From a virus, in IMG/VR virus record IMGVR_UViG_3300012944_000005: a DNA stretch of 64,000 nucleotides; one strand, given 5' to 3'. Each line of letters begins with the position of its first letter. Positions within the stretch are counted from its first letter, which is position 1. Below, one piece after another: positions 4,019-29,894 of the stretch. The notes beneath the pieces are model-generated. The model searched no databases. It was not told the origin of the DNA and saw nothing but the letters and a program-made list of their open reading frames with translations. The position numbers were made by a program, and so were the translations under genes.

Positions 4019-4252
4019 AGCGTTCCCTCGTCAGGTTGTCGAGGTCGCTATGCGCTGATTGGCAGCGTTGACAGGTCTAGCTTCCGCCTTCGCCCGTCGC
4101 TCTCTCGTGTATTAATTTGTCAATCAGTCCCGAGTCTGCGGCAGCTCGCTCTCTTCCCTGCTCTCTTTGAGCCAGTCTTCCCACGCCTTCAAGATACCCT
4201 TAAAGAGCGTAATCAATCGTTCATGGAGTCGGATTGTGGCTGTCCTCATTGC

Positions 4253-5097: not shown

Positions 5098-5098
5098 C

Positions 5099-6179: not shown

Positions 6180-6715
6180 GCTCTTACCAGCCTATTCCCG
6201 GCAATCAACCCCGAAATCAACTGCAGTACCCTCGGCGGTAGCCCACCATTAGGCCGCGACTGCCTCAGCTTCACGCTCACCCCATCTGCCGAGAATGAAT
6301 CCATCGCGTCTTCCTGCCCATCGTCAAAGCCTTCCAGATATGCTAACGCAAGCTCGCATTGGGCGTCTTTGACGAGCTGCGGGATTTCGGTCGTAAGGTA
6401 TTGCTCGCCGTAACCCCAGCCCCAATCGTAGCCGTAACTGCCGTACCAAAGGCCGATCCCGACCGGATCAACCTTCGTGACACCGATTCGCGGCCAGGTC
6501 AGCCGCTGCGTTGTCGTGACGCGATTGCCGAGCCAGTTCTCGGCGTCCAGTCTCTTGGCCGCCATCAGGAGTGCCCGAGTCTTATCGTCTGCAACTGCAG
6601 ATGACCATGAAGCGCTATTGAGCCGCGCGTCGAGGAAGCTCTCGGCGTCTTCCATTGCGACATATGAATTCGCGGAGGCGCCGCCGATCGTGATGTCTAT
6701 GACAGGAATCGCCAT
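6176..6715 (-). CDS. gp6-like head-tail connector protein
   Basis: N-terminus SANSYVAMEDAESFLDARL...DKTRALLMAAKRLD...QRLTWPR resembles the phage gp6-like connector family. Lies just downstream of the capsid gene. Confidence 0.55.
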   Translation of the reverse strand: MAIPVIDITIGGASANSYVAMEDAESFLDARLNSASWSSAVADDKTRALLMAAKRLDAENWLGNRVTTTQRLTWPRIGVTKVDPVGIGLWYGSYGYDWGWGYGEQYLTTEIPQLVKDAQCELALAYLEGFDDGQEDAMDSFSADGVSVKLRQSRPNGGLPPRVLQLISGLIAGNRLVRA

Positions 6716-6718
6716 TGA

Positions 6719-6913
6719 TTACTTCTCGACTTTGGTCTTCGGCTTGGCTTCAGGCTTTGGCGCTCCCTCGCCTTCAGGTTTTGAATCGCCATCGGGTTGC
6801 GGTGGCTCATACGCTTTATGAATCGCCGGATCAAAGTCTGATTTGTTAATTAAGTAGCAGCCTCCAGGCGCTCTTTCGTCTGCGACTTTCACGGTTTCAA
6901 TTGTTTCCGACAT
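6719..6913 (-). CDS. small Pro/Lys/Glu-rich protein
   Basis: 64-aa ORF between the capsid and connector genes. Confidence 0.35.
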   Translation of the reverse strand: MSETIETVKVADERAPGGCYLINKSDFDPAIHKAYEPPQPDGDSKPEGEGAPKPEAKPKTKVEK

Positions 6914-6997
6914 AAGATCTCCACGAAGTTTCTAGAAAGATTCAAAAGTAGCGCCAAAAGCACTGGCTATTCTTGACGCTACTTTTTTTGAAGGTCA

Positions 6998-8155
6998 TTA
7001 ACCGAGCAACACTGTGATGAAATCATTCTTCACGGCCTTGGTGCCCCATGCCATGCCAACCTCATAGCTGATCTGCCGGTATTGACGATAGAGCGCGACC
7101 TGGAAGGCGAGTCCCGTTTGCGGGTCGACAATCTCGATCACGTCATCAGCCTGATCGCCCTGCGCAGGCATCGCTGGCGCGCGAGAGAGGAGGTGAAGGG
7201 CGTTGCGGTCGAACCCTATATTTGTCGTGGCGTTGTTGCCTATAGTCATTGCCGTGGCCACCGCCGGAAGGGCGATGCGCAGCCCTGGAGCGCCTATTAC
7301 GATGGTGCCCGGCGCTGCGACACCCGTCGTAACAACGTAGATGTTCGCGTCGCCCGCGAACGTCACACGGTCGCCAGCAAGAACAGTACCCGTACCGGTG
7401 ATCAGCGGGATGGAGGTTGTTCCCACGGGGAAGCCTGCGGCGGTCGAGGTATAAGCCGTGCCCGTACCCTTCGTGACGGAGACGATTGGGAACGAATTCC
7501 CGATCATCAATCCCATCACCTCGCCGATTATGCCGCGTCGCAGCAGGTCGGCCGTGCCGGCCTCGTTAACCCTGAAGAGCACCGCCTGCTTGCCTCGCAG
7601 ATTTGCCATTGCGGCCGCACCGACAACTAGACGCCTATTACCGGCAGGTGCGCCATCATCCTCCAACACGCGCAGGACGGCCGCGAAATCGGAGAGATCG
7701 TTTGCGGTATTAAATGGAGGGGCGCCCGCCGTGCCAGTAGCGCGCGAAGCGCCCTGATAAGCCGCCGTCCACAGATCATTTTCGATTTCGTTGACGAGCG
7801 TCCTCATCGACTGCGCGAATTGATCGCGCAAAATATTCTGGCCCTGCGGAACGTCGCCCACGCTCAACGACCTGCTCTCTTCTCCTGTCCAGTTGAACGA
7901 AACCTTGCGACTCTTTGAGATCGTCATCGACCCGGCATTGATCGTTTGATCGGCGCCGGCCGGAGCGATATTGCCAGGTGTAATGTCAGCGGCCGCCATC
8001 GAACCGACAATCGGATAGCCGATGATCTGGCCCTTCGCGGCGCGCGTTGCGGCAGCGTTGAGATAAACGGCGGGAATGAAGCCCGTGAGCTCACGAGCGA
8101 CCTGATCCGCCGCCTCATAGATAGTCGGCAGAATTGCGGTCAACGTATTTGCCAT
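6998..8155 (-). CDS. major capsid protein
   Basis: 385 aa in portal-scaffold-capsid synteny. Overall composition resembles P22-coat-like/HK97-fold capsid proteins. Confidence 0.7.
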   Translation of the reverse strand: MANTLTAILPTIYEAADQVARELTGFIPAVYLNAAATRAAKGQIIGYPIVGSMAAADITPGNIAPAGADQTINAGSMTISKSRKVSFNWTGEESRSLSVGDVPQGQNILRDQFAQSMRTLVNEIENDLWTAAYQGASRATGTAGAPPFNTANDLSDFAAVLRVLEDDGAPAGNRRLVVGAAAMANLRGKQAVLFRVNEAGTADLLRRGIIGEVMGLMIGNSFPIVSVTKGTGTAYTSTAAGFPVGTTSIPLITGTGTVLAGDRVTFAGDANIYVVTTGVAAPGTIVIGAPGLRIALPAVATAMTIGNNATTNIGFDRNALHLLSRAPAMPAQGDQADDVIEIVDPQTGLAFQVALYRQYRQISYEVGMAWGTKAVKNDFITVLLG

Positions 8156-8172: not shown

Positions 8173-8958
8173 CTAATCGGTAAGCTGCCCGCCGTCTTTC
8201 ATGAACTTCGCCCGTGCGTCGTGACCAAGTTGGTCGAAAGCCCCGCGCGTCATGACTTTTCCTCCGGCCGGGCCGGTTCTGTTATTATTGTTGTGCGCCC
8301 CAGAGCCTCCCGCGCCGGTCGCCTCGAAAGCTCGGCCAAACACTTCGTTGGCCTTCATCTCTTCAACAAGGTTGCTGATCGTGAACGGATCGCCTTTCAC
8401 GTTGGCAATCCTCGGCTGCCCTTGCGCGTCCAGCACGCGGGCGACGAATTCGCCGTTTTCCTCTACGACTTTGACCGCGCGCATCACATGCGGCAGGAGC
8501 AATTCCGGCGCACCCTTCGCGGCGGCGATTGCGGATGTCGCCTGGGCCTCGATCAAGCTCTTTTCGAGCGACGACTGCAGTTTGACGATTCGGTCATCGC
8601 GGGATTTGAGTTCCGTCTGAAAGTGCGTCTCGCGCTTGGTTAAATCAGTCGCGAGTTGCTCTTTCAACTGTTTTTCCCGCGCGTCCCAATCGCCTTTGTT
8701 CTTCAACTTGTCAGCAGCGGCTTGCTCAGCCTCCGTTTTGAGCTTTCTCGCCTCTTCTGGATCAATTCCCTCGAATCCTTTAAGCGACCTCTCGAAAGCG
8801 GCCTTCGCTTCACGCTCTTTCTGCAGCGCGCTCTTGAGACCAGCGGTCTCGGTTGGCAATTCAGCCTCGAACACGAACTTCCCGTCTTGTTCGAGTAGTG
8901 AACTGCGCAGCCATTCAGGCGCGTCCTCTTTCTTGTCAAAAACCTGCTTAACTGGCAT
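8173..8958 (-). CDS. scaffolding protein
   Basis: 261 aa, Lys/Glu/Ala-rich predicted coiled coil between portal and capsid. Confidence 0.6.
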   Translation of the reverse strand: MPVKQVFDKKEDAPEWLRSSLLEQDGKFVFEAELPTETAGLKSALQKEREAKAAFERSLKGFEGIDPEEARKLKTEAEQAAADKLKNKGDWDAREKQLKEQLATDLTKRETHFQTELKSRDDRIVKLQSSLEKSLIEAQATSAIAAAKGAPELLLPHVMRAVKVVEENGEFVARVLDAQGQPRIANVKGDPFTISNLVEEMKANEVFGRAFEATGAGGSGAHNNNNRTGPAGGKVMTRGAFDQLGHDARAKFMKDGGQLTD

Positions 8959-9043
8959 TTCAACCCTCCCGGTTGGTTATGGCGGGCGTCCTACCCGCGA
9001 CGGTTATTATTGTGAAGGAAGCGATTTATTTATTTTTCTGGCA

Positions 9044-10510
9044 CTACTGCCCGCTGTTGAACTTCTGCAACGCCAGATCTGCCAGGTTCACCTTTTTCTG
9101 CTGCTCCGCGTCGAGGCGTTGCTGCTCGACCTTAGGATCGAAGTTTGCGGGGTTCTTACCGGCCGCAGATAGGACATCCCACATTGTTTGCTTTGAGTAT
9201 TGCCCTGCGGCTTCGGCGTTCGACCAGAAGGTCATTTCCTGCGGCGTCATCGTCAGGTCGTCGAGGCTCGCGCCCAGTTCGACATTGCCACCCGTTGTGG
9301 CAGCCGGCATGAGATATTGAGCGTGGAATTTGAGCTCGAGTTCGACGGCATCTTTCAGGCTGCGCGCGGCCGTGGCGAGGTCGCTTGATTCTTCGATCTG
9401 GTCGTTCTTCTCCTCAGTCGCGGTGATCGGCCCGCCCGTGCGCTTCACGAGCAACGACAGGCCCATGATTGACATCCGCTCTTCGAGGGTTTTGATGTCG
9501 GCAGCCGCGCCGCCCAATGCCGCCCCTGTCGTCTCGGCGAATGCGACCTGACCGTTCTCGCCCACATCAAACCAGGTGTAAGGACCCACCGCTTCAATCT
9601 TTTTGCTTGTATCTCGACCGCGAAACCATAAGAGCGGCCGGCTTGCGATGTGGAGATAGATCGAAAAGTCGGAATACTTTTGATAGTGGCTGATGTTTGT
9701 CATCGCCAGGTCTAGTAATGGCGGCTGCGATTTGAGAATCCCATGCTTGCGGCTGTAGATAATTGCGACCGGAATCTCTTTGAGGGATGTTTCGCCACCA
9801 TCCTCAAAGAAGATCTTCGTCTCCTTACCGTCTTTTATCTCGCGATACAGTTCCCAACTGCCAGGCTTCAGCACTCGATAGCGCACAACTTCTTTCTCGC
9901 CGTATTCGCCATCCGACTCTTGCGAACATTCCCTAAAGACGATCAGGTCGAGCTTGGTTTGCCCGTTAACGACTACCGTCCGCCAGTTGATAATTTGATC
10001 TGCGCAATATGACACCCAATATGGACGGCGTCCCGCATTACGCTCGTCGGCAAGCGTCGCGTCTTCAGGCATCAATGGCGGCATATCCACGAGCATCGCG
10101 GCATGGCCATCGCGCATTGCGTGGGTGAAAACTTCCTTGCAGAACACAGCGCCGTGCGTGCCCGCGTTATCTATATTCTCCCACTGCCCCTCGACAGCCG
10201 TTTGAGTGTCCGTCGCTTCCCTGCCGCGAATTACTTCGGGAACGTTGTCGGCGAGTTTTGGATCGTTCCTGAAGACCATTCCAACTAGGCCGGCCAATGT
10301 CAGGTCAACGGCATTGAAGAAAATGGCGCGGCTGAGCCGGTATCTATAATGCTGATCCTCTTCACCTGGCTCACGCGGTAGATATATCGCCCCCTGTTTT
10401 CGCAATTTCAGCGTCCCAGCGGACGTATCTTCCATGATCTGCCATCCGGCCCTCATGTCCTCATAGGCGCGACAGCAATACGATGGTTGGTTTTTAGGTT
10501 CCTCGGCCAC
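9044..10510 (-). CDS. portal protein
   Basis: 488 aa, first gene of the head module. Size and synteny fit a portal. The codon at 10510 is GTG with no obvious RBS, so the start is uncertain. Confidence 0.65.
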   Translation of the reverse strand: MAEEPKNQPSYCCRAYEDMRAGWQIMEDTSAGTLKLRKQGAIYLPREPGEEDQHYRYRLSRAIFFNAVDLTLAGLVGMVFRNDPKLADNVPEVIRGREATDTQTAVEGQWENIDNAGTHGAVFCKEVFTHAMRDGHAAMLVDMPPLMPEDATLADERNAGRRPYWVSYCADQIINWRTVVVNGQTKLDLIVFRECSQESDGEYGEKEVVRYRVLKPGSWELYREIKDGKETKIFFEDGGETSLKEIPVAIIYSRKHGILKSQPPLLDLAMTNISHYQKYSDFSIYLHIASRPLLWFRGRDTSKKIEAVGPYTWFDVGENGQVAFAETTGAALGGAAADIKTLEERMSIMGLSLLVKRTGGPITATEEKNDQIEESSDLATAARSLKDAVELELKFHAQYLMPAATTGGNVELGASLDDLTMTPQEMTFWSNAEAAGQYSKQTMWDVLSAAGKNPANFDPKVEQQRLDAEQQKKVNLADLALQKFNSGQ

Positions 10511-10559
10511 GGAGGGAGATTAGGCTGGGAAGATTTTTTATTTTTGGCGAGGATTCTTC

Positions 10560-10588
10560 TTGACTAAAACCCGCCAGGGGGTTATCGT
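10560..10588 (+). promoter_or_regulatory. sigma70-like promoter candidate for the plus-strand accessory operon
   Basis: TTGACT (10560-10565), a 17-nt spacer, then TATCGT (10583-10588). Located in the portal-divergent intergenic region, 50 nt upstream of the first plus-strand ORF. Confidence 0.3.
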
Positions 10589-10638
10589 GTCCTCAGTGGC
10601 GGCAATCACGTCGCGCAAACAAACGGAGAAAAAGAAAA

Positions 10639-10890
10639 ATGATTGGTTACGATTTTGATTACGCCTATCCAGTACAAATGGAAATAATCCACGGGCGCCA
10701 CTCCTATATTTCCGGATGGTCCTCTAGGGAGGATGCGCTTAGGGGTGCGCGGAAGAGAATCGAAAATAAGCACGCAGGCACGATTTTATCGGGGGCGGAA
10801 TGCACAGTTTTTTTGCATACCGCTTACGCCTCTTATTGCGTCTGGAGACGACCAGGTCACACAGACCGAGACATAGAGGCAAGTGGGTGA
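10639..10890 (+). CDS. hypothetical protein (83 aa)
   Basis: First ORF of the plus-strand block. GGAGAAAAAG lies upstream of the ATG. Confidence 0.4.
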   Translation: MIGYDFDYAYPVQMEIIHGRHSYISGWSSREDALRGARKRIENKHAGTILSGAECTVFLHTAYASYCVWRRPGHTDRDIEASG

Positions 10891-10980
10891 AGTTCTGCGC
10901 AGAGCCTCACTCCCCGCAAACAACAATCCACCGGGGCGACGGCGCCCCACTCAACAACGCAAAGATGACAAGGAGGATCA

Positions 10981-11175
10981 ATGGCTATTTGGATGAGAGA
11001 CGAGAAAGGGGAATTCTGTACAGCCTACACGGTTGAATACCGGGGGGAGGTTTTTATCGTAACCGAGCGGGAATACGACGCTCTGGCCGAGTCGGGACCG
11101 AACGTTGCGGACGGCTCTATCGGCGGCGATGACGCTATAGGTGATTTTTTGCGAGGCTTGGGCGCTCTCGATTGA
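10981..11175 (+). CDS. hypothetical protein (64 aa)
   Basis: ORF with AAGGAGG upstream. Its stop overlaps the next start. Confidence 0.45.
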   Translation: MAIWMRDEKGEFCTAYTVEYRGEVFIVTEREYDALAESGPNVADGSIGGDDAIGDFLRGLGALD

Positions 11176-11438
11176 GCGCGATCCACGAGACATTCACTCG
11201 ATGGAAGCAAAAACAACTACAACAATCAATGGAGGAGAACAGGATGCCAGGACAATTGTGGCAAGAATGCCACTGCGGAACTGAGCCTGTGTGCTCAGAC
11301 TGCGAACACTGCAAAAAACATTGCTCGTGCGAGCAAGACAAATCGGACGCGAAACAGATTCAAGAGTTTGAGCGGGCATATCCTGGATTCTTGGAGCGCG
11401 TGCGAAAACACCACGAAGATGGCAGTAATGAACATTGA
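11172..11438 (+). CDS. Cys-rich small protein (88 aa)
   Basis: CHCG...CSDCEHCKKHCSC cysteine cluster. Coupled to its neighbours. Confidence 0.45.
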   Translation: MSAIHETFTRWKQKQLQQSMEENRMPGQLWQECHCGTEPVCSDCEHCKKHCSCEQDKSDAKQIQEFERAYPGFLERVRKHHEDGSNEH

Positions 11439-11646
11439 CCAAAAAATCCTAGCAACTCTGGGCTGGATAGCCGCCGTCAAACGCGGCGAGTCCGGCTATT
11501 TAATCTCGGCAGAGATTTTTGACGGCATTTCGACGCTCGCCGAAGAGTATAAACGGCTGGTGATTGAGAAAGCGCGTGGGTCCCAAAAGCCGAGCAAAGC
11601 GCCGGCTAGGCGCAGGCAAAAAGCCCGCAAACGCGCGGAGGATTGA
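11419..11646 (+). CDS. hypothetical protein with basic C-terminal tail
   Basis: MAVMNIDQKILATLGW... ending KAPARRRQKARKRAED. The stop is directly followed by the csf1-like ATG. Confidence 0.4.
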   Translation: MAVMNIDQKILATLGWIAAVKRGESGYLISAEIFDGISTLAEEYKRLVIEKARGSQKPSKAPARRRQKARKRAED

Positions 11647-12321
11647 ATGCCCCCTATCAGCCATTTTATTTATCCAGCCGCTCCGCGCGGCGCTGAATCC
11701 GGTATCTGCGCCGTCTGCGGCTTCGAGGGCGATGGCCAGTACGGCCGCGACATTCTGGACATCACGACCAGCAATGTTACGGCGCTGTTTGAATTGGCTT
11801 ACGGCCATATATGCGCGCCCTGCTATGGATTGTGGTCGAAGCCGAAATACTGGCATCGCGGGATCTTCGCCACTCGCGGCGGGGTGCGATTCCCAGTGAT
11901 CTCGCGCGAGAGCGTCACGCCTGAGCGTCCGACATGGTCGCAGGCGCTGCGCGCGCTCTCGCCCGATGAACCGCGCGCCATCGTCCTGACCACCGATCCA
12001 AAGAAACGCGTCTGGCCGTTTGCTCGTGTGTCATCCGGCGATACGGCGTGGATTTATATCCACGATCCATCGCGGGGCGTAAGCAGCAACCGCCCGGTCT
12101 CAATCAAGAAGTTGCTCGCCGCGCTCGACTTGGTTGAGCAGGTTTACGCGCTCGGCTGGTCCAAGCCCTGGATCGCCAGGAGCCTTATGGGCTCTCAAAA
12201 CGCCATCGTATCCACCGGCCTCGACGTCGCGCTCAATCTCGATCGGCGTCTAGCCCAAATCCGCAATGAGCCCGAGTTTCTGCCCGCGCTCATCGTTGCC
12301 CAAAAGGAGATTCCCGAATGA
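11647..12321 (+). CDS. csf1: Csf1-like (type IV Cas8-like) zinc-finger protein
   Basis: 224 aa with two CxxC pairs (ICAVCG and ICAPCYG) near the N-terminus, as in the Csf1 family. ATGA overlap with the next gene. Confidence 0.55.
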   Translation: MPPISHFIYPAAPRGAESGICAVCGFEGDGQYGRDILDITTSNVTALFELAYGHICAPCYGLWSKPKYWHRGIFATRGGVRFPVISRESVTPERPTWSQALRALSPDEPRAIVLTTDPKKRVWPFARVSSGDTAWIYIHDPSRGVSSNRPVSIKKLLAALDLVEQVYALGWSKPWIARSLMGSQNAIVSTGLDVALNLDRRLAQIRNEPEFLPALIVAQKEIPE

Positions 12322-13751
12322 TATTGAATTCGCACGTCCCCGCCCCATTCCGTTTCCTGATGACCGCCGCTAACTCCGTCGCGCACGGTGAGGCCGGCGC
12401 GAACTCGACCGGGCCAAACAACACAACTCTTTTCGCTCGCGAGCTGGCGCTCCTGAAGCGCGAGCAACTCGGATATGCGCCGGCGGAAGCGAAGGAGGCA
12501 TTCAAGTCCCTCTTCGAGTCTTTCCCAGTTGCAACCACGAATATTCCCTATCTCCATACCCGCTCCGGCGCTGAACTAATCGCCATTATCTTCACAGCTC
12601 AATATCCGCTGATCTACGGCGGCACGGGCGATGGACTATTTTCCGGCCTGGAGCGCTACCAATACCTGGTCACCCGGCTGACCGACGCGGCGGCGAGTTT
12701 CTCGACCCTGCCGTCTGTCTGGGGTTATGTGGCGCGCAAGCTGGCGCTGCCGATGTACCCGGAGAGCGCCTACAGCGTCATGGCCGCGCTCTACACGCTG
12801 CCGACTGCGCTTCAAGCTGCCGCGCTCTCGGCTGTGCTGAAATCCTCCGAGCTGATCGTTATGTCTGCGCGAATGATCGCCGATGGCGTCAAGGCGTCGA
12901 GCGAGGACTACGCCCGAAAGGCCAAAGTTTCGCCGACAACGCTCGAAGTTTACAGTCCGACCGACTCCCAGATAGCCGAGATTGTGGGCGATGGCGATAA
13001 GACAATAGCCATCCGCTTGCCTGCTATCTCCGGTAATTCCCTGCGCCACAACTTGCTGCGCGCGCCGGCGGCAACTCGATTGCTCTCCGAGCTTGGACTG
13101 CAACCGGATCGCGAGATCGTCCCGGTCGGCGTCGAGCGCTTTCTGTACAGCGGCGGCAATACCCAGAAGGGCGCCAAGTCTCCCGCCGCCGCCGATCTCT
13201 ATGAGGCCAGGGCGCGCGAACGGTATCCGACAATTGATGCGCTCGGCGGTTCGACCGATCAGTTTGTCATGACCCGCTCGGCTGTGAGTATCGCGGGCTG
13301 GATCGTTTGCCGCGAGAACAATTGGATTACAGAGCGACGGACGGACGGTAATATCCGCTCCGATGCGTCGATCTTCGATCTGGTGACGGAGACGACCAGA
13401 ACGCGCGCCGGCATTGGCGGCAAGGACGCTGAGAGCGGCCAGATGATTTTCTCCTATGAGACTCTCGCGGCGGGCACTCCTGTGCTCGTGGAAGTCAATT
13501 TCCAGCCCTTTACGCGCGACCTGACCGTCGGCTCGATGCTCCAATCCCTGCGCGACTGGCAGGCTGAGGGCGGCTTCATCGGCGCTCGGAGCGCGCAGGG
13601 GCATAGCCGATTCCTGGCTGAATTCCCGGACGATGATCGCTTTGCTTGGGCGGACGCCTATTTGCAATATTTGCAGGAGAACAAAATCGAGTTGGCCGAA
13701 GGGCTGCGAGCGGCGACGTTCGGAGCGGAGGTAAAACTATGCGCGGCGTAG
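12318..13751 (+). CDS. csf2: Csf2/Cas7-like RAMP protein with large helical insertion
   Basis: 477 aa. Has N-terminal FRFLMTAANSVAHGEAG, then LPAISGNSLRHNLLR (Cas7-type G/S-x-S-L-R motif), then glycine-rich GGFIGARSAQGHSRF near the C-terminus. AAAGGAG RBS. Confidence 0.55.
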   Translation: MILNSHVPAPFRFLMTAANSVAHGEAGANSTGPNNTTLFARELALLKREQLGYAPAEAKEAFKSLFESFPVATTNIPYLHTRSGAELIAIIFTAQYPLIYGGTGDGLFSGLERYQYLVTRLTDAAASFSTLPSVWGYVARKLALPMYPESAYSVMAALYTLPTALQAAALSAVLKSSELIVMSARMIADGVKASSEDYARKAKVSPTTLEVYSPTDSQIAEIVGDGDKTIAIRLPAISGNSLRHNLLRAPAATRLLSELGLQPDREIVPVGVERFLYSGGNTQKGAKSPAAADLYEARARERYPTIDALGGSTDQFVMTRSAVSIAGWIVCRENNWITERRTDGNIRSDASIFDLVTETTRTRAGIGGKDAESGQMIFSYETLAAGTPVLVEVNFQPFTRDLTVGSMLQSLRDWQAEGGFIGARSAQGHSRFLAEFPDDDRFAWADAYLQYLQENKIELAEGLRAATFGAEVKLCAA

Positions 13752-14476
13752 TTCACCTGTCCGACCTCGACCGCTACGGCGAGCGGCTCGCCGGATTGCA
13801 GATGCGCCCGCTGCGCGTCACGGCGCGCACGGTGACGCCCGTTGCCAGCAATGATCCGGTAGCGCTCGACGCCGTACTGGCGTGGACGATGGTTGTTGAG
13901 CAATTGGAAGGTCGGCCCTTTCCTCGCGTGGAAGGGCCGGTCTGGCAACCATTGCCGCTTGCGCTTGACCGCCTGATTGACGGCTTACCGCTCTGGCAGT
14001 CAACGGACTTTATGCCGGTCGGGCTGGCGAGGGGGATGAGCCATATCCACCGCCGCACGGGCGATAACCCCTACGCGATGCGCGGATTGCAAGAGACGCT
14101 CTCCCAGAAGCGCCCGCGCCGATACCCGAGTGAACTGGCCGGGCCATATATGAATTTCAGGGTTCCGGAGCGGCGGAACGTGGCGGAGAGTTGGTCGGCG
14201 ACCTGTGTCGGCAATAAGGCGGAGATCGAGCGGCTATTGAGCTACGTCCAGTTCTTCGGCAAAGCGCCGAAGCGTGGCTGCGGGTTCATATTCGATTGGG
14301 AAGTGGAATTGCTCGATGAGCTATTTTCGCTCTATAACGAATCCGGCGAGCCGCTGCGCCCGATCCCGGTCGAGTGGGACACGGGCGTCTGTGTCCAACA
14401 GGGATGGACGCCCCCGTACTGGCTGAAAGAGACATGGCGTCCCTGTCTCAGTTCAGCAGCGGCGAGGTTTGTATGA
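13739..14476 (+). CDS. csf3: Csf3/Cas5-like RAMP protein
   Basis: 245 aa from ATG 13739 (GGAGCGGAGG upstream). Has PVALDAVLAW and the C-terminal glycine-rich loop FFGKAPKRGCGFIFDWEV typical of RAMPs. Confidence 0.5.
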   Translation: MRGVVHLSDLDRYGERLAGLQMRPLRVTARTVTPVASNDPVALDAVLAWTMVVEQLEGRPFPRVEGPVWQPLPLALDRLIDGLPLWQSTDFMPVGLARGMSHIHRRTGDNPYAMRGLQETLSQKRPRRYPSELAGPYMNFRVPERRNVAESWSATCVGNKAEIERLLSYVQFFGKAPKRGCGFIFDWEVELLDELFSLYNESGEPLRPIPVEWDTGVCVQQGWTPPYWLKETWRPCLSSAAARFV

Positions 14477-14736
14477 TCGTAGGAGATTTATTCATCACGC
14501 CGCACGCCGTGCGGCAGTTTCGCGAGCGCATACCGGGAATGTGGCGGCTCAAATACGAGCAGGCGCTAGGGCTCATCCTTCGCGCGCTGCGAGAAAACAC
14601 GGCCAGCGTCAAGCCGACGCCAAACGGCTGTGGCGTCTCTATTCGCGTGCGGGGGGAGTTGAACTTTCGCGCGATTGCAGCGCGGGGCGAGGGCGTCAAG
14701 CCAGCGGTCGTAACGATTCTGCGGAGCGGAAAATGA
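14473..14736 (+). CDS. small operon protein (87 aa), unknown fold
   Basis: ATGA overlaps at both ends. Contains the motif ITPHAVRQFRER. No confident family. Confidence 0.45.
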   Translation: MIVGDLFITPHAVRQFRERIPGMWRLKYEQALGLILRALRENTASVKPTPNGCGVSIRVRGELNFRAIAARGEGVKPAVVTILRSGK

Positions 14737-15530
14737 AGGATTGGGCAGATTACGGCATCACCGGGAAAGTTCATTATGGCCAGCCGGTCAACGCCGAGCC
14801 GTACCGCCGCGTGATTCAGCGCCGAATGGCAAAGTCTCACGTTGCAATCGAGGAATTCCTTCACCTGGTCGGCAAGTCGGGCTACGTGGCCGTGAGTTTT
14901 GGCGTTGATTCCCTTGTGGCCTACGACCTGGCGCGGCGGATCTATCCGGAGATCTGTGCCGCGTGGGTCAACCAGGGGCCGCTCGCCGAGTGGCCTGACT
15001 GTCTCGCGCTGAAGAATCTGATGGTTGCCGGCGGAATACCTCTCACAGAGATCGCGCCCGACGTGACGCTCTACGACTGGTACAAGCAAAACGGGATCGA
15101 TTTCGGCGCTAACATGAACAACGCTGAGGATGAGCGACTAAATAAGGCGCTGATCTACGACCCTATCGAGCGATTCCACCAGGAAGAGAATCGCAAAGGC
15201 GTTATTTGGGGACTGCGCTGGCGAGGCGAGGGCGGGCATCGGGCTTTTGTGATCAAGGGCAATGGTGAGCTTTATCAGCGCAAGGCTGATGGTATCTGGG
15301 TCTGCTCGCCGGTCGGCAACTGGTCGAAGAGCGAGATATGGGCCTACCTGGATTTGCACGGTCTGCCCTACCCGGCTTTCTACGATCTAGACCGCGAGAA
15401 GATCCGCAACGGCCCACCTATTGGGGTCACGGGGCTGCATATGGGGCGTCTGGTGCGGTTTCGGATGCTGTTCCCGGAGATGTGGCGGGTGTTCTGTATG
15501 GAATTTGAGGAGATTCAACGATATGGCTGA
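14733..15530 (+). CDS. CysH-like PAPS reductase / PP-loop superfamily protein
   Basis: 265 aa from ATG 14733. PP-loop-like VAVSFGVDSLVAYDL, resembling the SFG-x-D/E-S motif of the PAPS reductase family. Confidence 0.6.
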   Translation: MKDWADYGITGKVHYGQPVNAEPYRRVIQRRMAKSHVAIEEFLHLVGKSGYVAVSFGVDSLVAYDLARRIYPEICAAWVNQGPLAEWPDCLALKNLMVAGGIPLTEIAPDVTLYDWYKQNGIDFGANMNNAEDERLNKALIYDPIERFHQEENRKGVIWGLRWRGEGGHRAFVIKGNGELYQRKADGIWVCSPVGNWSKSEIWAYLDLHGLPYPAFYDLDREKIRNGPPIGVTGLHMGRLVRFRMLFPEMWRVFCMEFEEIQRYG

Positions 15531-15768
15531 ACCTGTAAAACTGGACGATATCCTCATCTCCCTGGAGATATATGAGACATGGAACAAGCTGGCCTCGCAG
15601 GTCTCCACCTGTTTACCTGCCGGCGTCTCGCCGCAGGATATTGGCGACGAGGAAGCGGAAAAGAACGCTGATGGAAGTCTGACGATATTCTGTCGCGCGA
15701 AGGGCAAGCGGATCGCCCAATTGCGCATACCAGCCACTCACTGGCAATGGAGGTTTCCGGCAAATTGA
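15523..15768 (+). CDS. hypothetical operon protein (81 aa)
   Basis: MAEPVKLDDILISLEIYETW... Overlaps the upstream stop by 8 nt and the next start by 1 nt. Confidence 0.4.
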   Translation: MAEPVKLDDILISLEIYETWNKLASQVSTCLPAGVSPQDIGDEEAEKNADGSLTIFCRAKGKRIAQLRIPATHWQWRFPAN

Positions 15769-16664
15769 TGATGATCTATCTCGGACTCGATAATCAGGAG
15801 AAAGACAGGCGGATCGCTGATTACTGCGCGGCGCACGGTGTTGAGAAAGTCGTCATCCTATCGCCGGCGAAGTTTACGCTCTCCTGCTCGTTTGCCAACT
15901 CGGAAGTAGTCGAATGGGCTGAGATCATTGAATACAAATTCTTTTATAGGCTGATTCAGGAGATCAACAGCAAGACGCTGGTCGTAGTTAATGAATGCCT
16001 GCGGACGCAAAACCGCTACGATCTGACTTATAACTGCATTCGCCACTTCCTGAATCAGACCAGCCACCAGTTAATCTTCCAGCACTTGCCGATAATCGAT
16101 TCGATCGAGGACTTCATGATTCTCTTCGACTTTGACACGCGCAGCCGTTGGAAGCGCGAGAAGTTTAACGCAAAACCGCTGGGCGAGAGCCGGATCGAGG
16201 TCGCGCCCGTCGCGGTCGTCTTCAATACGATTCCGGTCGAGATCGACGCCAAACTGAAGGACGCCTATCGGAAGGAGAAAGAGCGACTACTCGCCCACAT
16301 CGGTCTGAAAGATCCGCACACGATCCCGCGTAATCTCTATCTGATGAGTGGCAAAGCAAAGCTGAAACACGTCGAGTCCGGAGGCGCCGGACTCTTCGCC
16401 GAGCGCCGTCATTATGTCGGCCGCAACAATCGCTTCAAGATCGAAACTCTTCAGACCTACAAGGAGCCGAGCTATCCAGATGCGCCTTATATGGTCTTCG
16501 AGTTTTGTCACAACTTCATCGACTTCGTGGACTTCATGGCGCTGTCGCGCCAGTCGTCCTTCGACGTCATGGTCGCCGACCTGAAGGTCGATCAATGGTA
16601 TCTGGCCCGATACCGCGAATGGGCTGAGAGGCTAAGGAATGCCACGGCAAGTTTACAGCGATAA
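15768..16664 (+). CDS. hypothetical operon protein (298 aa)
   Basis: Long ORF with ordinary globular composition. TGATG junction upstream (alternative ATG at 15747) and a 26-nt overlap downstream. No motif recognised. Confidence 0.5.
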   Translation: MMIYLGLDNQEKDRRIADYCAAHGVEKVVILSPAKFTLSCSFANSEVVEWAEIIEYKFFYRLIQEINSKTLVVVNECLRTQNRYDLTYNCIRHFLNQTSHQLIFQHLPIIDSIEDFMILFDFDTRSRWKREKFNAKPLGESRIEVAPVAVVFNTIPVEIDAKLKDAYRKEKERLLAHIGLKDPHTIPRNLYLMSGKAKLKHVESGGAGLFAERRHYVGRNNRFKIETLQTYKEPSYPDAPYMVFEFCHNFIDFVDFMALSRQSSFDVMVADLKVDQWYLARYREWAERLRNATASLQR

Positions 16665-17766
16665 AAAGAACGTCCTCGACGCTGCGCGCGGGCGCATGGT
16701 GTTTGTCTTTGATCATTTTGAGCAGATTATCGTTTCGGTGAGCGGCGGCAAGGATTCGACCGTCCTGGCGCACCTAGCGCTTGCCGAGGCGCGCCGGCGC
16801 CAGCGCAAGATCGGGCTGTTTTTTCTGGATGAGGAGGCGATGTATCAGAGTAGCGTGGATATGGTGGAATACCTGATGGGGATTTTCCCGGAAAACGTGA
16901 ATCGCCTCTGGCTACAAATTCCTTTCAACCTGACCAGCGCGACATCATTTCAGGAAAGTCAGATGCGATGCTGGGAACCGGGCAAGCATAAAGACTGGAT
17001 GCGCCAGAAGGGGCGCAACAATATCTGCGCGAAGCCTTGGCAGGAAAAGGAGGAGTCGTTCAGGAGCGGCTATAAATGGCTGGATTTCTACGGCGTGATT
17101 GAGAATTTCGAGCGATGTTATAAGGGCGCCGCTTTTCTGGTCGGCGAGCGCGCCACGGAAAGCCCGAACCGATGGCGCAGCGTGGCAAAGAATCCGGTAA
17201 TCATCGGGGGGACGAAGGTTTTCTGGGGGACACCTCGCGGCGACAATTTTATCTTTAAGCCGATCTACGACTGGAACTTCCATGATGTATGGCACTACAT
17301 TCATGACGAGAAACTGAGGTACTCGAAGATTTACGATTTTCAGTTAAAAAAAGGCTATCCGATCAATGAGATGCGGATAAGCTCCCTTATCCACGAACGA
17401 TCATTCAAAAGTTTGTGCGACCTACCTGAGTTCGAGCCGAAGACTTTTGAAAAACTCTGTCGGCGCATCAAGGGAATCGCATTTGTTCAGGAGACGGGAA
17501 AAAACGCGAAAGTCTTCAAGGCGCGGAAGCTGCCGAAGAACTTCAAATCGTGGATCACCTACCGCGATTTTTTGCTCGAAACATATCCCGACCCGGCGAA
17601 CAAGCCCATCTTCAAGAAGAGATTCGGCAAGCATCTGATCAATGAATACGTGGCGCGCCAGCATTGTCGTCAGCTTGTTTGCAATGATTACGAAAACAAC
17701 CTGCCGGTCGATAACCGCCCTGATCCGCGCGAGGAATTGATTCGCTATTATCAGGAGGTTTTATGA
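16639..17766 (+). CDS. IbrA/DndC-like PAPS-reductase-domain protein with C-terminal extension
   Basis: 375 aa. Canonical PP-loop SVSGGKDSTVLAHL plus a C-terminal extension of roughly 170 aa, as in IbrA-type (PAPS_reduct plus DUF3440) proteins. Confidence 0.6.
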   Translation: MPRQVYSDKKNVLDAARGRMVFVFDHFEQIIVSVSGGKDSTVLAHLALAEARRRQRKIGLFFLDEEAMYQSSVDMVEYLMGIFPENVNRLWLQIPFNLTSATSFQESQMRCWEPGKHKDWMRQKGRNNICAKPWQEKEESFRSGYKWLDFYGVIENFERCYKGAAFLVGERATESPNRWRSVAKNPVIIGGTKVFWGTPRGDNFIFKPIYDWNFHDVWHYIHDEKLRYSKIYDFQLKKGYPINEMRISSLIHERSFKSLCDLPEFEPKTFEKLCRRIKGIAFVQETGKNAKVFKARKLPKNFKSWITYRDFLLETYPDPANKPIFKKRFGKHLINEYVARQHCRQLVCNDYENNLPVDNRPDPREELIRYYQEVL

Positions 17767-18365
17767 CCTACTACGTTGATACGATTGAGCAATTCTACGC
17801 CATCCGAGAGAACCTGCAGCCGGCCTATATCACCTCGAAAAAGCACGGGCGTATTGAGGTTCCTTGCGCAAATACGCTCCTGGTCAACACGGAGTTAATC
17901 AAAGCGAATAATTACAATCCGAATTACGTGCCGAGGGAAAAGATGGCACTGCTACGGCAGTCCATTCTGGATAACGGCTTTTGTTCTCCTATTGTGACAA
18001 TATGGGACGACGAGCAGGAGCGATTCATCATAGTGGACGGCTTCCACCGTGACACAATGGGCGATAAGGAGTGGCTCGATCTGGATTATATTCCGCTGGT
18101 TGTCTTGAAGCACGGCATAGTGCAGCGAATGACCGCGACTGTGCAGTTTAACAAAGCGCGCGGCGTCCACCAAGTCGACCTCGACGCCGAAGTCATACGG
18201 GCGCTGATCGAGCAAAGTTTGAGCGAGGAAGAGATTGCGATCCATCTCGGCCTTGACCTGGAAACCATTCATCGCTACAAGCAATTGACCGGCGTCGCTG
18301 AGCTGTTCAAGAACTCAGCGTATTCGATGAGCTGGGAAATGGTCGAAGAAGAGGAGACGGCGTGA
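17763..18365 (+). CDS. ParB/Srx-domain protein (IbrB/DndB-like)
   Basis: 200 aa with ParB N-terminal-domain motif IIVDGFHRD. AGGAGG RBS. ATGA overlap upstream. Confidence 0.6.
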   Translation: MTYYVDTIEQFYAIRENLQPAYITSKKHGRIEVPCANTLLVNTELIKANNYNPNYVPREKMALLRQSILDNGFCSPIVTIWDDEQERFIIVDGFHRDTMGDKEWLDLDYIPLVVLKHGIVQRMTATVQFNKARGVHQVDLDAEVIRALIEQSLSEEEIAIHLGLDLETIHRYKQLTGVAELFKNSAYSMSWEMVEEEETA

Positions 18366-19000
18366 GCGACTGGGATTATGGCGGTATCCACCGCGCTTAT
18401 GATATGTCGGGCGTGATCGAGTTGCCCAACAACTCGCGCGTCGAGGTCTGCGATTGGACGGATCGGTTGCCAAGTTTCATGCTTGGCGCCGACACGATCT
18501 TTGTCGATCCGCCGTGGAATGCTGGAAATGCTAGGACATTTTATACAAAAGCTGACAAGACGGTTGCCGCTTTCAGCTTCGAATGGTTTTCCGACCGCCT
18601 ATTTTGCAGACTGGACCAGATCGCGCCGAATTATCTATTCATCGAGATGGGCAAGGAGTGGCTCGGCTGGTATCTTGAACGCTGCCGCGAGCGCTATAAA
18701 TATGTCACTTTCTATAACTCGACCTATTATAAGAAGCGCGAGAACAAGTGTTACGTGATCCACGCCACGGATAACCATTCGCGCCGGCGCTACAAAGAGC
18801 TTGAAGATCTGGACGAGGCAGCGATCATCGAATGGCTGTGCGCCAACCACGATTATCAATGCATCGGCGATCTATGCATGGGCTGCGGGTTAGTCGGTAG
18901 ACACGCTTTTCTAAACGGCAAACGGTTCGTCGGCACGGAACTGAACCCGAAGAGATTGGCTATTCTGGTCGATTTTATTCGGAAAACAAAAGGAGATTGA
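18362..19000 (+). CDS. DNA amino-methyltransferase (N6-adenine or N4-cytosine, beta-class motif order)
   Basis: 212 aa, GTG start overlapping the upstream stop. Motif IV IFVDPPWN comes before the AdoMet motif I-like IGDLCMGCGLVG. Confidence 0.65.
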   Translation: MSDWDYGGIHRAYDMSGVIELPNNSRVEVCDWTDRLPSFMLGADTIFVDPPWNAGNARTFYTKADKTVAAFSFEWFSDRLFCRLDQIAPNYLFIEMGKEWLGWYLERCRERYKYVTFYNSTYYKKRENKCYVIHATDNHSRRRYKELEDLDEAAIIEWLCANHDYQCIGDLCMGCGLVGRHAFLNGKRFVGTELNPKRLAILVDFIRKTKGD

Positions 19001-19257
19001 GAATGCTAACGATTGAAAACGACGGCCAGGAGATCGTTAAAACGAACTTCTGGCAAACCGAGCAGGCAAAGCAGGGCGCGTTCTATTTGTCCGTTGAGTC
19101 AGGGCCAGGTGGATCGCTGGCTACCGGCTGAGGAGTCGGGGCGCACGGCCCAGTTTTCGGCGTGGATACTGAAAGACGGCAAGCCGCATTGCGCTTATCG
19201 CTCGGAGTGCTATTACCGCACAGCGCCGCGACTGCCCTACCTGAAACCGAGAGAGAA

Positions 19258-19548
19258 ATGACAAAGGAAGAAAAGGAAGTATCTTTAGTGAACGCGCGGC
19301 GCGCTTGCCTGATGCTCATCGAATTCGCAATCGGCGCCGCGCCTGCGATTATCCTGAATCACGGTCAGCGCGAAGAAATCGCCAGTCTACTTGAAGAGTT
19401 CAGCAGGCTCGACGCCATAGAGAGGCGGCAGATAGAGGCTGGGAAAAAGAATGGGAAGCTCGGGGCGATTCACGGGAAGAAGGGCGGCAGGCCGAAAGGC
19501 TCGAAGGTCGGTAAAAAGAAAGCGAAGAAAAAGATGGCCACGGCTTAA
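19258..19548 (+). CDS. hypothetical protein with Lys/Gly-rich C-terminal tail
   Basis: MTKEEKEVSLVNARR... ending GGRPKGSKVGKKKAKKKMATA. The ATG overlaps the upstream stop. Confidence 0.4.
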   Translation: MTKEEKEVSLVNARRACLMLIEFAIGAAPAIILNHGQREEIASLLEEFSRLDAIERRQIEAGKKNGKLGAIHGKKGGRPKGSKVGKKKAKKKMATA

Positions 19549-19569
19549 TCTCACATACAAGCCGTGGCC
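19536..19569. terminator. bidirectional terminator-like hairpin between convergent operons
   Basis: GGCCACGGCT (19536-19545) pairs with AGCCGTGGCC (19560-19569). 10-bp stem, 14-nt loop. Lies between the end of the plus-strand operon and the terL stop. Confidence 0.4.
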
Positions 19570-19624
19570 ATTATTGGAGGTCACCCGTGGGTGAAGCATG
19601 AACCCAAAGCGGTGTTTATTTGTC

Positions 19625-21007
19625 TTAGCGGAAGAACGTGCCCTGCTCGAACTGGCCGCGTGGCACTCTCACCCAGTTTGCAATCGCGAGCGCATCACCT
19701 CGATCCGGCGAACGCCCGAGACGCCTCTTGATGTCGTCTTTCGATTCCAGCTTGATTCGTCCGCGCGAGTCGTAGGCGAACTTGACGTTGCTCAGGTCCG
19801 CCGCCATCTTCCGGTCATCAGGCAGGGCCAGATCGCCAGCCTTCAGCGCCTCCCGTAGCGCCCACCACATTTCAGCGCGCGCATTGACGAATTTCCCATC
19901 TTCTCGCGCCGCGCTTCCACCAATGCACGCTTTGACGCTGACACCTTGCTCTTTTAGTCGGTCCGTAACGCCGCCACCGAGTCCAGCGTCGTCAACGCCG
20001 AGCGACAGAGCACCGAGCGCCTTCAATTGCCCTGCCGTCTCCATTAGATTCTGACCGTGGCGCACGGATGGTCGGCTGACAATGCCGCCCTCGAAGATCG
20101 AGAAAATGACGGTTTCATCCTGGCCGTAGCGCGCGATATCGCAGCCCACGCAAGCCAGTTTCGCGCCCGGCTGGGGTTCAACCCATCGTTTCTGCGCGGC
20201 TTCGACCAGCGAAAGCGGGATCAGAACGTCATCGCCTTCTTCCGGCCAGAGCCCGCGCACGCGCGCGCGATATAAGCCGCTCTCCCGTCCTCCATATTCC
20301 TGCTCTCGCTCGGCGATCCATTCCCGCGTCACGGCGCCGGGGACAACGATGCGCCCTTCCCTGACGTTTGGATGGTCTTCGGCAGACAGCCGCAGGACGT
20401 TCCACAGTCCCGAATCTTCCTTGCGCTTCGCCTCACTCGTCGGGTCTGTCGGGTTGCCGATGGCCAGAAAGCGATCATCGTTGCCGACCGCGATGCCCTC
20501 GGATGCCTCCCAGATGCCGGAATCAACCCCAATTGCCTCGTCGAAGATGATCATAATTCGCGGCGCGTGGAAGCCTTGAAAGCGCGTCGGGTCGTCGGTC
20601 GAGAGACCGATCGCAAACCAATTATCTGCGAGGATAATTTGGGTTTTATGGACAGCGCCTCCCAGTGGAAATTTCGAGGCCAGGTACGCCCCGCGTAGCT
20701 CCCGCCAAAGCAGGCTTTCGACTTGTATCCAGGTCGGCGCCGTCGTGATTACTTTGCTGTTCGGATTCGAATAAAGAAACCAGAGAGCGAGACGAGCCGC
20801 GAGGTATGTTTTTCCGACGGAATTGCCCGCCGTTACGAGTGTGCGTCGATGATCCCGCACGCTCTCCAATACAGACATCTGCTGCGGGGTGAGATATTCA
20901 GCGCCGAGCACATTGCGGATAAACCACGCCGGGTCATTCCGGCTCCGCTCCAGCACTGTCTTGGCTTGGGTTCGATTCATCACTCGCCATTTGGGCCAGG
21001 ACTGCAA
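19625..21007 (-). CDS. terL: terminase large subunit
   Basis: Walker A LVTAGNSVGKTYLA, Walker B IMIIFDEA, and a C-terminal nuclease-type region. The start may be at MNRTQ (20980). Confidence 0.8.
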   Translation of the reverse strand: MQSWPKWRVMNRTQAKTVLERSRNDPAWFIRNVLGAEYLTPQQMSVLESVRDHRRTLVTAGNSVGKTYLAARLALWFLYSNPNSKVITTAPTWIQVESLLWRELRGAYLASKFPLGGAVHKTQIILADNWFAIGLSTDDPTRFQGFHAPRIMIIFDEAIGVDSGIWEASEGIAVGNDDRFLAIGNPTDPTSEAKRKEDSGLWNVLRLSAEDHPNVREGRIVVPGAVTREWIAEREQEYGGRESGLYRARVRGLWPEEGDDVLIPLSLVEAAQKRWVEPQPGAKLACVGCDIARYGQDETVIFSIFEGGIVSRPSVRHGQNLMETAGQLKALGALSLGVDDAGLGGGVTDRLKEQGVSVKACIGGSAAREDGKFVNARAEMWWALREALKAGDLALPDDRKMAADLSNVKFAYDSRGRIKLESKDDIKRRLGRSPDRGDALAIANWVRVPRGQFEQGTFFR

Positions 21008-24274: not shown

Positions 24275-24278
24275 TTCG

Positions 24279-26503: not shown

Positions 26504-26505
26504 TC

Positions 26506-28155: not shown

Positions 28156-28158
28156 GGG

Positions 28159-29880: not shown

Positions 29881-29894
29881 CTCTCCTCTTCCGT

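Follow-up and report, generated by a model that had tools for sequence, protein, structure and literature searches.

A type IV-B CRISPR cassette without an array shares one phage operon with predicted nucleic-acid-modifying enzymes

The window analyzed here is the whole 64,000-nt stretch of the virus record IMGVR_UViG_3300012944_000005 (IMG/VR), in which a plus-strand block of genes lies between the genes for the portal-type protein and the large terminase (terL). [quoted passage not shown] The chances are about even that the cassette and the enzyme module constitute one composite system, in which an RNA–protein filament would be coupled to ATP-dependent nucleic-acid modification. The original prediction did not recognize the gene combination as a described system. 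This view stands for the extension by genes for SF2-like, IbrA-like, ParB-like, and methyltransferase proteins, which none of the searched papers reported, but not for the core of Csf1–Csf3 and a CysH-like protein, which is a described type IV-B system.

Type IV-B systems comprise Csf1, Csf2, Csf3, and Cas11 together with a cysH-like gene, and they lack an array, Cas6, adaptation genes, and a helicase (PMC8175902, PMC7038947). They are known from plasmids, and reports from prophages, archaeal viruses, and a number of lytic phages exist as well (PMC10848311). The block conforms to this description: csf2 is accompanied by csf1 and csf3 in the usual order, the adjacent CysH-like protein has an SxGxDS motif and no catalytic cysteine, the carrier is a mobile element, and no array, Cas6, adaptation genes, nuclease, or DinG/RecD adjoins the cassette. 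No CRISPR-like repeats were found in 10500-19600, and in 12 related loci the 10 kb around the csf genes were likewise free of arrays. Likewise, Cas6, Cas1, Cas2, and DinG had no match among the ten proteins of the block, the remaining window not having been screened protein by protein. Compared with the type IV-B reference (7JHY, Mycobacterium sp. JS623), which resides on an actinobacterial plasmid, the carrier here is a tailed temperate phage, Cas11 appears as a domain in Csf2 after the first Cas7-fold strands, an 87-amino-acid (aa) gene sits between csf3 and cysH, and SF2-like, IbrA-like, ParB-like, and methyltransferase genes are coupled to the cassette.

Table 1. Features of the block, its flanks, and the second CRISPR-derived locus in the window (E, expectation value; ORF, open reading frame; pLDDT, predicted local distance difference test)
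Feature	Position	Strand	Basis or remark
Portal-type protein, left flank	9044-10510	-	Pfam DUF4055 E 4.1e-28
Sigma-70-like promoter match, TTGACT-17-TATCGT	10560-10588	+	9/12; precedes the block
Four small lineage-specific ORFs	10639-10890, 10981-11175, 11244-11438, 11428-11646	+	Gene calls; the last abuts csf1
Junctions 1-5	TGA-ATG 11644-11649; ATGA 12318; 13-nt overlap 13739; ATGA 14473; ATGA 14733
Junctions 6-10	8-nt overlap 15523; TGATG 15766; 26-nt overlap 16639; ATGA 17763; GTGA 18362
csf1, small Cas8-like subunit of type IV, 224 aa	11647-12321	+	PADLOC typeIV_Cas8/Csf1 E 9.1e-7
csf2, type IV Cas7, 477 aa	12318-13751	+	PADLOC typeIV_Cas7 E 2.2e-30, residues 231-463 only
Cas11-like helical domain inserted in Csf2 (predicted)	residues ~47-228 (nt ~12456-13001)	+	Profile and model
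csf3, type IV Cas5, 245 aa	13739-14476	+	PADLOC Csf3 E 2.3e-27; precomputed PF27782
Conserved 87-aa protein between csf3 and cysH	14473-14736	+	No family match
cysH-like PP-loop ATP pyrophosphatase, 265 aa	14733-15530	+	Pfam PAPS_reduct E 1.5e-8; type IV-B signature gene
81-aa ORF, not conserved	15523-15768	+	No family match
298-aa protein, two-lobed SF2/Snf2-like fold	15768-16664	+	Foldseek on AlphaFold2 model (pLDDT 84.3)
IbrA-like PP-loop enzyme, 375 aa	16639-17766	+	PAPS_reduct E 1.3e-12, DUF3440 E 1.2e-7, phrog_2302 E 1.2e-79
ParB/Srx-fold IbrB-type protein, 200 aa	17763-18365	+	phrog_2159 E 2.1e-41; DGFHR motif
Small beta-class amino-methyltransferase (predicted), 212 aa	18362-19000	+	DPPW motif IV near N-terminus; PADLOC mad2 E 1.7e-6
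Two small lineage-specific ORFs	19003-19131 (42 aa), 19258-19548 (96 aa, lysine-rich tail)	+	Gene calls
14-bp-stem hairpin between convergent block and terL	19533-19572		dG -26.2 kcal/mol, z -4.35
Large terminase, right flank	19625-21007	-	Pfam Terminase_6N E 6.5e-5
Mini-CRISPR array, three 37-nt repeats and two unique 36-nt spacers	29980-30162	-	Repeat search of the window
Cas12m/Cas12f-like gene, 569 aa, directly upstream of the array	30171-31880	-	Cas12u1/Cas12f profiles E 2.7e-23, 5e-20

The Csf-like genes named in the original prediction hold up in both profile and structure searches and do not belong to unrelated families. Csf1 gives the weakest match of the three; it spans positions 17-212 of the 227 in the PADLOC profile, carries CxxC...CxxC cysteines near its N-terminus, and is encoded upstream of csf2 in L002-L018 (related loci are denoted by L numbers). 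Csf3 also matches TIGR03116 (cas5_csf3) at E 7.5e-12, under the curated cutoff. Csf2 aligns with a canonical 302-aa Csf2 in hhalign with a probability of 98.3, and its best Foldseek matches are the Csf2 of type IV-A (E 4e-8) and the type IV-B Csf2 of 7JHY. In searches for other carriers, a canonical Csf2 had no match among isolated phage genomes, and the Csf2 from Microbacterium found only weak haloarchaeal matches among plasmids. Upstream of csf1 in a related viral contig (L016), by ~0.9 kb, lie 21-nt tandem units (GTTCACGTGGTGCACTACGTA and variants, 8280-8360) that may be an operator or iteron array.

The Csf2 family represented here is ~470 aa long compared with the usual ~300 aa, and the block contains no separate cas11 gene. 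In the AlphaFold2 model of Csf2 (pLDDT 83.5), two N-terminal strands are followed by an all-helical insert (~55-225) and then by the Cas7 core. A profile of the family matches the Csf2 of 7JHY with its N-terminus and C-terminal two-thirds and the Cas11 of 7JHY with its middle, while a profile of the insert only has 7JHY Cas11 as its sole significant match in the PDB (E 1e-5). Furthermore, the PADLOC typeIV_Cas11 profile matches the same part of the long Csf2 ORFs of relatives (L034, E 3e-15; L025, E 1.5e-8), although no PADLOC Cas11 profile matches the Csf2 protein of the window itself. Since hhalign of the family against one separate Cas11 (from L022) returned nothing, the assignment rests on the 7JHY match and on the PADLOC matches in relatives. 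Searched against 1.84 billion cluster representatives, the fused Csf2 profile retrieved 143 at E <= 1e-30, and ~110 of the best 150 matches are full length (430-540 aa), so the predicted Cas7–Cas11 fusion is a sizeable family rather than a one-off. A Cas11-like helical domain inside Csf2, with no cas11 gene of its own, appears to be new. In the type IV-B complex of 7JHY, as summarized in PMC8175902, Csf2 and Cas11 form intertwined filaments on RNA; this JS623 complex is the only one for which such assembly of Csf proteins is known.

The genes that follow csf3 combine the signature gene of the subtype with small proteins. Two PP-loop enzymes had been claimed for the block, and both are confirmed, one CysH-like and the other IbrA-like. 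The PP-motif of the CysH-like protein reads SFGVDS, and GVTGLH stands in place of the catalytic ECGLH, which leaves the protein without the cysteine. In 30 relatives, the motif keeps to S[FWG]G[AVK]DS. A PP-motif without the CysH catalytic cysteine is a published trait of the type IV-B accessory protein (PMC8175902). The conserved 87-aa gene between csf3 and cysH appears to be new. Its homologues follow cysH in L005/L006 and parB in L027, and an 85-aa homologue (42% identity, E 2e-17) lies between csf3 and cysH on a Rhodovastum plasmid. The 81-aa protein had no homologue in any fetched locus. Accordingly, the three unknown proteins of the original prediction are now one protein with an SF2/Snf2-like fold, one conserved small partner, and one unconserved ORF.

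The remaining four genes form the enzyme module. The second PP-loop protein, with PAPS_reduct and DUF3440 matches, adjoins a ParB/Srx-fold protein, and the two together constitute an IbrA/IbrB-like pair. The SGGKDS motif of the IbrA-like protein is kept in 35 of 36 relatives. The ParB-like protein, as originally proposed, is indeed of this kind: DG[FY]HR is present in all 34 relatives (DGFHR in 33), and the C-terminus has a helix-turn-helix-like segment, although the match to Pfam ParB_N (E 0.003) is under the cutoff. The methyltransferase of the original prediction is likewise a probable amino-methyltransferase of the DPPW type. DPPW, kept in 27 of 31 relatives, precedes a glycine motif for S-adenosylmethionine binding near the C-terminus, and homologues in L005 and L022 have faint or weak precomputed N6_N4_Mtase matches. 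Catalytic motifs are conserved in the CysH-like, IbrA-like, ParB-like, and methyltransferase proteins alike. No informative solved relatives were found for the CysH-like, IbrA-like, and ParB-like proteins.

Other genes occur around such modules. A GNAT acetyltransferase lies within the IbrA/ParB module in two unrelated loci, on a phage contig (L004, 16055-16429) and on the Rhodovastum plasmid (L049, 12953-13414). An AcrVA2-like gene (PF26125; L021, 18685-19695) is found 6 kb from a csf-less 298aa–IbrA–ParB–methyltransferase module in a prophage-like region of an Acidobacteria metagenome-assembled genome (MAG). In the window, a C5 cytosine DNA methyltransferase gene (PF00145 E 6e-30; 32280-33485, minus strand) adjoins the Cas12m-like gene; together with the methyltransferase of the block, it would give the phage at least two DNA methyltransferases.

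The 298-aa protein has no Pfam match and 867 homologues at E <= 1e-3, with no match among isolated phage genomes or in PLSDB. Its model resembles the ATPase cores of INO80, ISWI, Chd1, and SsoRad54 in Foldseek (E 4.5e-8, TM ~0.55), and its matches in BFVD are SNF2/SF2 helicases. In the family alignment, NEC is invariant at the DExx position, and the invariant columns include neither a canonical Walker A nor a canonical DExx motif. In L005, the start of csf1 is overlapped by a full-length SNF2-family helicase gene (3662-7432, with an intein and a LAGLIDADG domain), and in L021 a gene of this kind (8637-10004) overlaps the start of the 298-aa gene, a hint that some versions of the system include an active translocase.

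The same gene neighborhood is conserved beyond the window, as the original prediction needed, in other viral contigs, a MAG, and a plasmid. A Csf2-seeded search recovered ten lineages, and in five of them, the window included, the IbrA/ParB pair was counted within 10 kb. In L004/L015/L017, the pair is convergent with the csf genes and again occupies the terL/portal slot. In L005/L006, it lies 2.7 kb downstream, beside an integrase gene and an intein-bearing SNF2 gene that overlaps csf1, whereas in L007 it directly follows cysH, with identities to the window proteins of only 30% for IbrA and 38% for ParB. The Microbacterium MAG contig CAZBZR010000065 (L018) has the order csf1-csf2-ibrA-parB-cysH-csf3-cas6. 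Here, a Cas6 gene (~6700-7575, PF10040 E 4e-16), rare in type IV-B, stands directly after csf3, and the 10-kb contig has no CRISPR array.

A second search, seeded with the 298-aa protein and independent of Csf2, fetched 25 IMG/VR loci, all with the module. Eleven of these contain csf genes, in at least seven gene orders, and Csf2 was confirmed by PADLOC in 10 of the 11, the eleventh (L028) being the L015 contig. The recorded orders, in which mt denotes the methyltransferase gene, are csf1-cas11-csf2-csf3-298aa-ibrA-parB-mt-cysH (L033), csf1-cas11-csf2-csf3-mt-298aa-ibrA-parB-cysH (L043, L045), csf1-csf2-csf3-298aa-ibrA-parB-mt-cysH (L034), csf1-csf2-cysH-298aa-ibrA-parB-mt-csf3 (L025, L044), and csf2 ... 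cysH-mt-298aa-ibrA-parB-csf3 (L031); in all of them, genes that define type IV-B bracket the module. Two additional homologues of the 298-aa protein were picked solely for their long contigs: one (L022) lies beside a canonical type IV-B system with a separate cas11, and the other (L021) has no csf genes. Outside viruses, the RefSeq plasmid RHOApd of Rhodovastum atsumiense G2-11, a cultured alphaproteobacterium, carries csf1-cas11-csf2-csf3-85aa-cysH facing ParB-GNAT-DUF3440-helix-turn-helix (L049, NZ_OW485605, record 24245-32527). As a background, IbrA-like genes were present in 0.42% of 50,697 phage records. In a neighbor-joining tree of the module IbrA proteins, one clade has csf genes in 13 of its 18 members and a second in none of nine; three of the five csf-negative members of the first clade are on truncated contigs.

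The linkage of a type IV-B cassette to an SF2-like/IbrA/ParB/methyltransferase module appears to be new. A full-text literature search that included comparative type IV papers found type IV-B linked to IbrA, ParB, or DUF3440 nowhere. A 2018 preprint, at the level of a figure legend, names an N6-methyltransferase in type IV-B neighborhoods. A 2015 report that mentions 'IbrA/B' and 'CRISPR/Cas' on a glacial phage-plasmid concerns a type I-E system and was set aside as a different association.

Several observations weigh against one composite system. The module occurs without csf genes in 14 of the 25 module loci, in L021, and in Flavobacterium phage FCL-2, where a ParB/PAPS-reductase pair alone fills the terL/portal slot. 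No nearby IbrA/ParB pair accompanies csf2 in five lineages or on a Rhodococcus plasmid. Three lineages (L004/L015, L022, and the Rhodovastum plasmid L049) have the two halves in convergent orientation, and since many positive loci belong to related phages, independent events are fewer than the counts suggest. At the level of single proteins, the 298-aa protein lacks the canonical ATPase motifs, and the methyltransferase matches Pfam N6_N4_Mtase only sub-threshold (E 0.086) and in its C-terminal part. Among published sources, a 2024 review tabulates the target and nuclease of type IV-B as 'Unknown', and the solved type IV-B complex, as far as it is summarized in PMC8175902, bound heterogeneous RNA, with Csf1 and Csf3 unresolved; a guided mode is therefore hypothetical.

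The distribution of the two halves also speaks for an alternative, in which a type IV-B cassette and a stand-alone DNA-modification or anti-restriction module are unrelated cargo in one phage hotspot, brought together only by the tolerance of the terL/portal junction for insertions. It agrees with the existence of each half without the other, with their convergent arrangement, and with the far greater frequency of the module, the 298-aa protein having 867 homologues and this Csf2 having 58. However, shared cargo does not explain the interleaving: at least eight loci have cysH or csf3 beyond the module, and in L018 ibrA-parB stands between csf2 and cysH. The link is also seen outside the terL/portal slot, namely in L005 beside an integrase and SNF2, on a plasmid, and on a 473-kb contig; it is seen with split and fused cas11 alike and with IbrA/ParB pairs just 28-38% identical to those of the window, and the csf-linked IbrA proteins form a separate clade. 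On balance, two unrelated cargo systems are regarded as unlikely. As for the one co-translated functional unit of the original prediction, the interleaved csf/cysH/module orders favor a unit, but the single operon is not conserved, since the halves are convergent in some lineages and each is also found alone.

If the csf cassette and the enzyme module are two halves of one system, the following mechanism can be envisaged. As in the solved type IV-B complex, which serves as the model, Csf2 and the Cas11 built into it would polymerize on RNA, with Csf1 and Csf3 capping the polymer, and the filament would serve as a nucleic-acid-binding platform that places the enzymes on bound nucleic acid, in all likelihood DNA. 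Adenylation is the means by which PP-loop ATP pyrophosphatases activate their substrates, and the two PP-loop enzymes may activate a position in this way, with pyrophosphate release, in keeping with the chemistry of the superfamily; the cysteine that sulfonucleotide reduction requires is missing from the CysH-like protein. Exocyclic amino groups are the methylation targets of DPPW enzymes, and the methyltransferase would add methyl marks. ParB/Srx-fold proteins with a helix-turn-helix bind DNA, and in other type IV subtypes, the Csf complex is paired with an SF2 helicase; the ParB-like and SF2-like proteins could thus act in DNA loading or tracking, as the DinG and RecD helicases do in those subtypes. 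The outcome would be covalent DNA marks that either protect the phage genome or silence and exclude competitors from the lysogen.

We further propose, as a possible but doubtful generalization, that an unrecognized nucleic-acid modification machine has the Csf complexes of type IV-B as its targeting or scaffolding half and the CysH-like, IbrA-like, ParB-like, methyltransferase, and SF2-like proteins as their natural partners, and that the 'orphan' cassettes of plasmids are reduced versions of it. Instead of interfering through binding or cutting, type IV-B would then mark DNA covalently on an RNA scaffold, possibly with RNA guidance. On type IV-B, the 2025 classification states only that effector nucleases are lacking.

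Comparison with known systems places the block between several of them. The IbrA/IbrB-like pair shares domain architectures and adjacency with its named family, and FCL-2 shares the terL/portal position; here, a conserved SF2-like protein precedes the pair, a small methyltransferase follows it, and Csf genes are joined to it. We know of no biochemical activity for the IbrA/IbrB-like family, and no close solved structure was found. The name itself carries an annotation as a co-activator of prophage gene expression (PMC4490671). Type IV-A and IV-D systems resemble the block in pairing a Csf complex with an SF2-fold partner and no nuclease, and type IV-A acts through binding and silencing, without cutting. 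However, these subtypes own arrays, Cas6, and an active helicase (DinG or RecD), whereas the partners here are of the modification type and the SF2-like protein lacks canonical ATPase motifs. The DNA phosphorothioation systems Dnd and Ssp, and type 4 BREX (BrxP), are similar in that a PP-loop protein of the PAPS-reductase family acts on DNA, DndB is ParB-like, and a DNA-marking role is predicted here. Readings of the block as Dnd, Ssp, or BREX were rejected for partial profile matches and missing partner genes: the DndC and SspD matches are partial (E 1e-7 to 1.6e-3, ~60 residues), the BrxP match is weak and partial too, and the ten block proteins include neither a cysteine desulfurase nor DndD/E, SspB/C, or any of the BREX core.

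A counter-defense role represents another explanation, in which the Csf filament would soak up host CRISPR RNAs (crRNAs) or other guides as a sponge, the PP-loop enzymes would chemically inactivate the RNA thus trapped, and the ParB-like protein and methyltransferase would separately protect phage DNA. Such a role is considered very unlikely. The carrier is a phage, the system has no array of its own, and the solved type IV-B complex, in the summary of PMC7937560 given by PMC8175902, assembles on heterogeneous, non-CRISPR RNA; a sponge has been put forward in PMC7038947 and in a 2023 preprint on virus-borne type IV-B. However, the authors of PMC7038947 themselves judged an anti-CRISPR of such complexity unlikely, a sponge would not account for the close association with proteins that act on DNA (the ParB-like protein, the DNA-type methyltransferase, and the SF2-like fold), and the self-contained insert layout in a temperate phage does not suggest early-infection genes.

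The phage carries two CRISPR-derived systems, the second of which is a Cas12m-like gene with a mini-array. The best solved relative of the Cas12m-like protein is Cas12m. The minus-strand repeat ends with an 8-bp hairpin two bases ahead of the spacer, as in type V crRNAs, and a GC hairpin with a T-run lies 3' of the array. The mini-array is assigned to the Cas12m-like gene by adjacency. An earlier candidate reading, in which the array (minus-strand repeat ending in ATTGAAAG) was processed by Cas6 and perhaps fed the Csf complex, was dropped because the upstream gene is Cas12f/Cas12m-like. The spacers had no match in the window, the fetched loci, or IMG/VR; the repeat had no exact match in IMG/VR, and in Joint Genome Institute (JGI) metagenomes it matched a single sequence, which is a fragment of this phage. 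A pattern scan found no relatives of the Cas12m-like protein in IMG/VR. The pairing of type IV-B with a Cas12m-like system may not be accidental, by analogy with a plasmid example in the 2025 classification.

This pairing bears on an alternative that is compatible with one composite system, namely crRNA-guided silencing in trans. The Csf complex would borrow crRNAs, either from the Cas12m-linked mini-array or from host arrays, and would block competing mobile elements in the lysogen by binding and marking their DNA. The three-repeat mini-array lies 11 kb away in the window of a temperate, integrase-bearing phage, and type IV-A works via transcriptional repression. Precedents for the components exist as well: the distant relative L018 has cas6 directly after csf3, a type IV-B system of an archaeal virus has a mini-array (PMC10848311), and a plasmid type IV-B is drawn beside an inactivated type V-B variant with a mini-array (PMC12669027). 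Nevertheless, adjacency gives the mini-array to the Cas12m-like gene, its repeat has a type V-style terminal hairpin, and neither spacer has a protospacer found. The absence of Cas6 from the ten block proteins and of arrays near the csf genes of the 12 related loci is also unfavorable, and a recombinant type IV-B complex did not load a co-expressed type I-E crRNA (PMC8175902). Borrowing of crRNAs is thus rated as quite unlikely, although less so than the sponge.

The layout of the block agrees with the original prediction throughout. All ten overlapping or abutting junctions claimed between 11647 and 19000 were borne out by reading the sequence at each of them, and an eleventh tight junction lies 2 nt ahead of the 42-codon ORF at 19003; the gene spacings from 11428 onward are 0, -4, -13, -4, -4, -8, -1, -26, -4, -4, and +2. 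Tight coupling of this kind is common in phage operons and is given little weight, as it proves little alone. The genes of the block are considered real, as all except the 81-aa gene have homologues elsewhere, and the conserved unit is 11647-19000 minus that gene. The small ORFs on either side of this core are without family matches and without homologues in other loci, and no conserved non-coding element or small ORF was found up- or downstream of the cassette across loci.

The position of the plus-strand block between two minus-strand packaging genes is likewise as described at first. A P22-type coat protein and a Mu F-like protein are encoded close to these genes, and Terminase_6C is present in the terminase homologue of L004. 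Insertions recur in the terL/portal slot, L004 having the same genes at that site. The proposed promoter-like element is present, with weak support: 9/12-grade matches number 10 in the region compared with 4.9 +/- 1.8 in shuffles, only about twice the expectation. The terminal hairpin was also found, with no U-run 3' of it. The opposite-strand, insert-like layout with its own promoter-like site and hairpin leans slightly toward expression independent of the late genes.

The window, which corresponds to a 66-kb metagenome contig in ENA, encodes an integrase, a DnaB helicase, and the C5 methyltransferase, and the phage is temperate and tailed. DNA and protein searches with the block and with Csf2 revealed no close relative among isolated phage genomes, and Rfam and tRNA scans of the window gave no matches, hence no known RNA partner. 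Elsewhere in the window (51822-51905), a 27-nt direct repeat, CAAATGCCCCAAAAATAGTTAGGGAAA, is present in two copies 57 nt apart, the second copy being 74% identical.

In reviews up to 2025, the target, RNA source, and activity of type IV-B are still listed as unknown, and the cysH-like gene was the sole lead. The present locus and its relatives extend the parts list by another PP-loop enzyme, by SF2-like, ParB-like, and methyltransferase proteins, and by a small 87-aa partner, all of which point to nucleic-acid chemistry, and the natural Cas7–Cas11 fusion, as predicted, would constrain the stoichiometry of the filament. In R. atsumiense G2-11, a cultured carrier holds the composite on its native plasmid RHOApd and is a possible experimental model; the locus thus brings the function of type IV-B within reach of experiments. 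Should the coupling not be real, the phage would still be a clean example of a virus with two CRISPR-derived systems, one type IV-B and the other Cas12m-like with a mini-array. If the coupling is true, a CRISPR-derived complex would have been recruited for epigenetic marking, which would be relevant to phage–host biology and to tool development.

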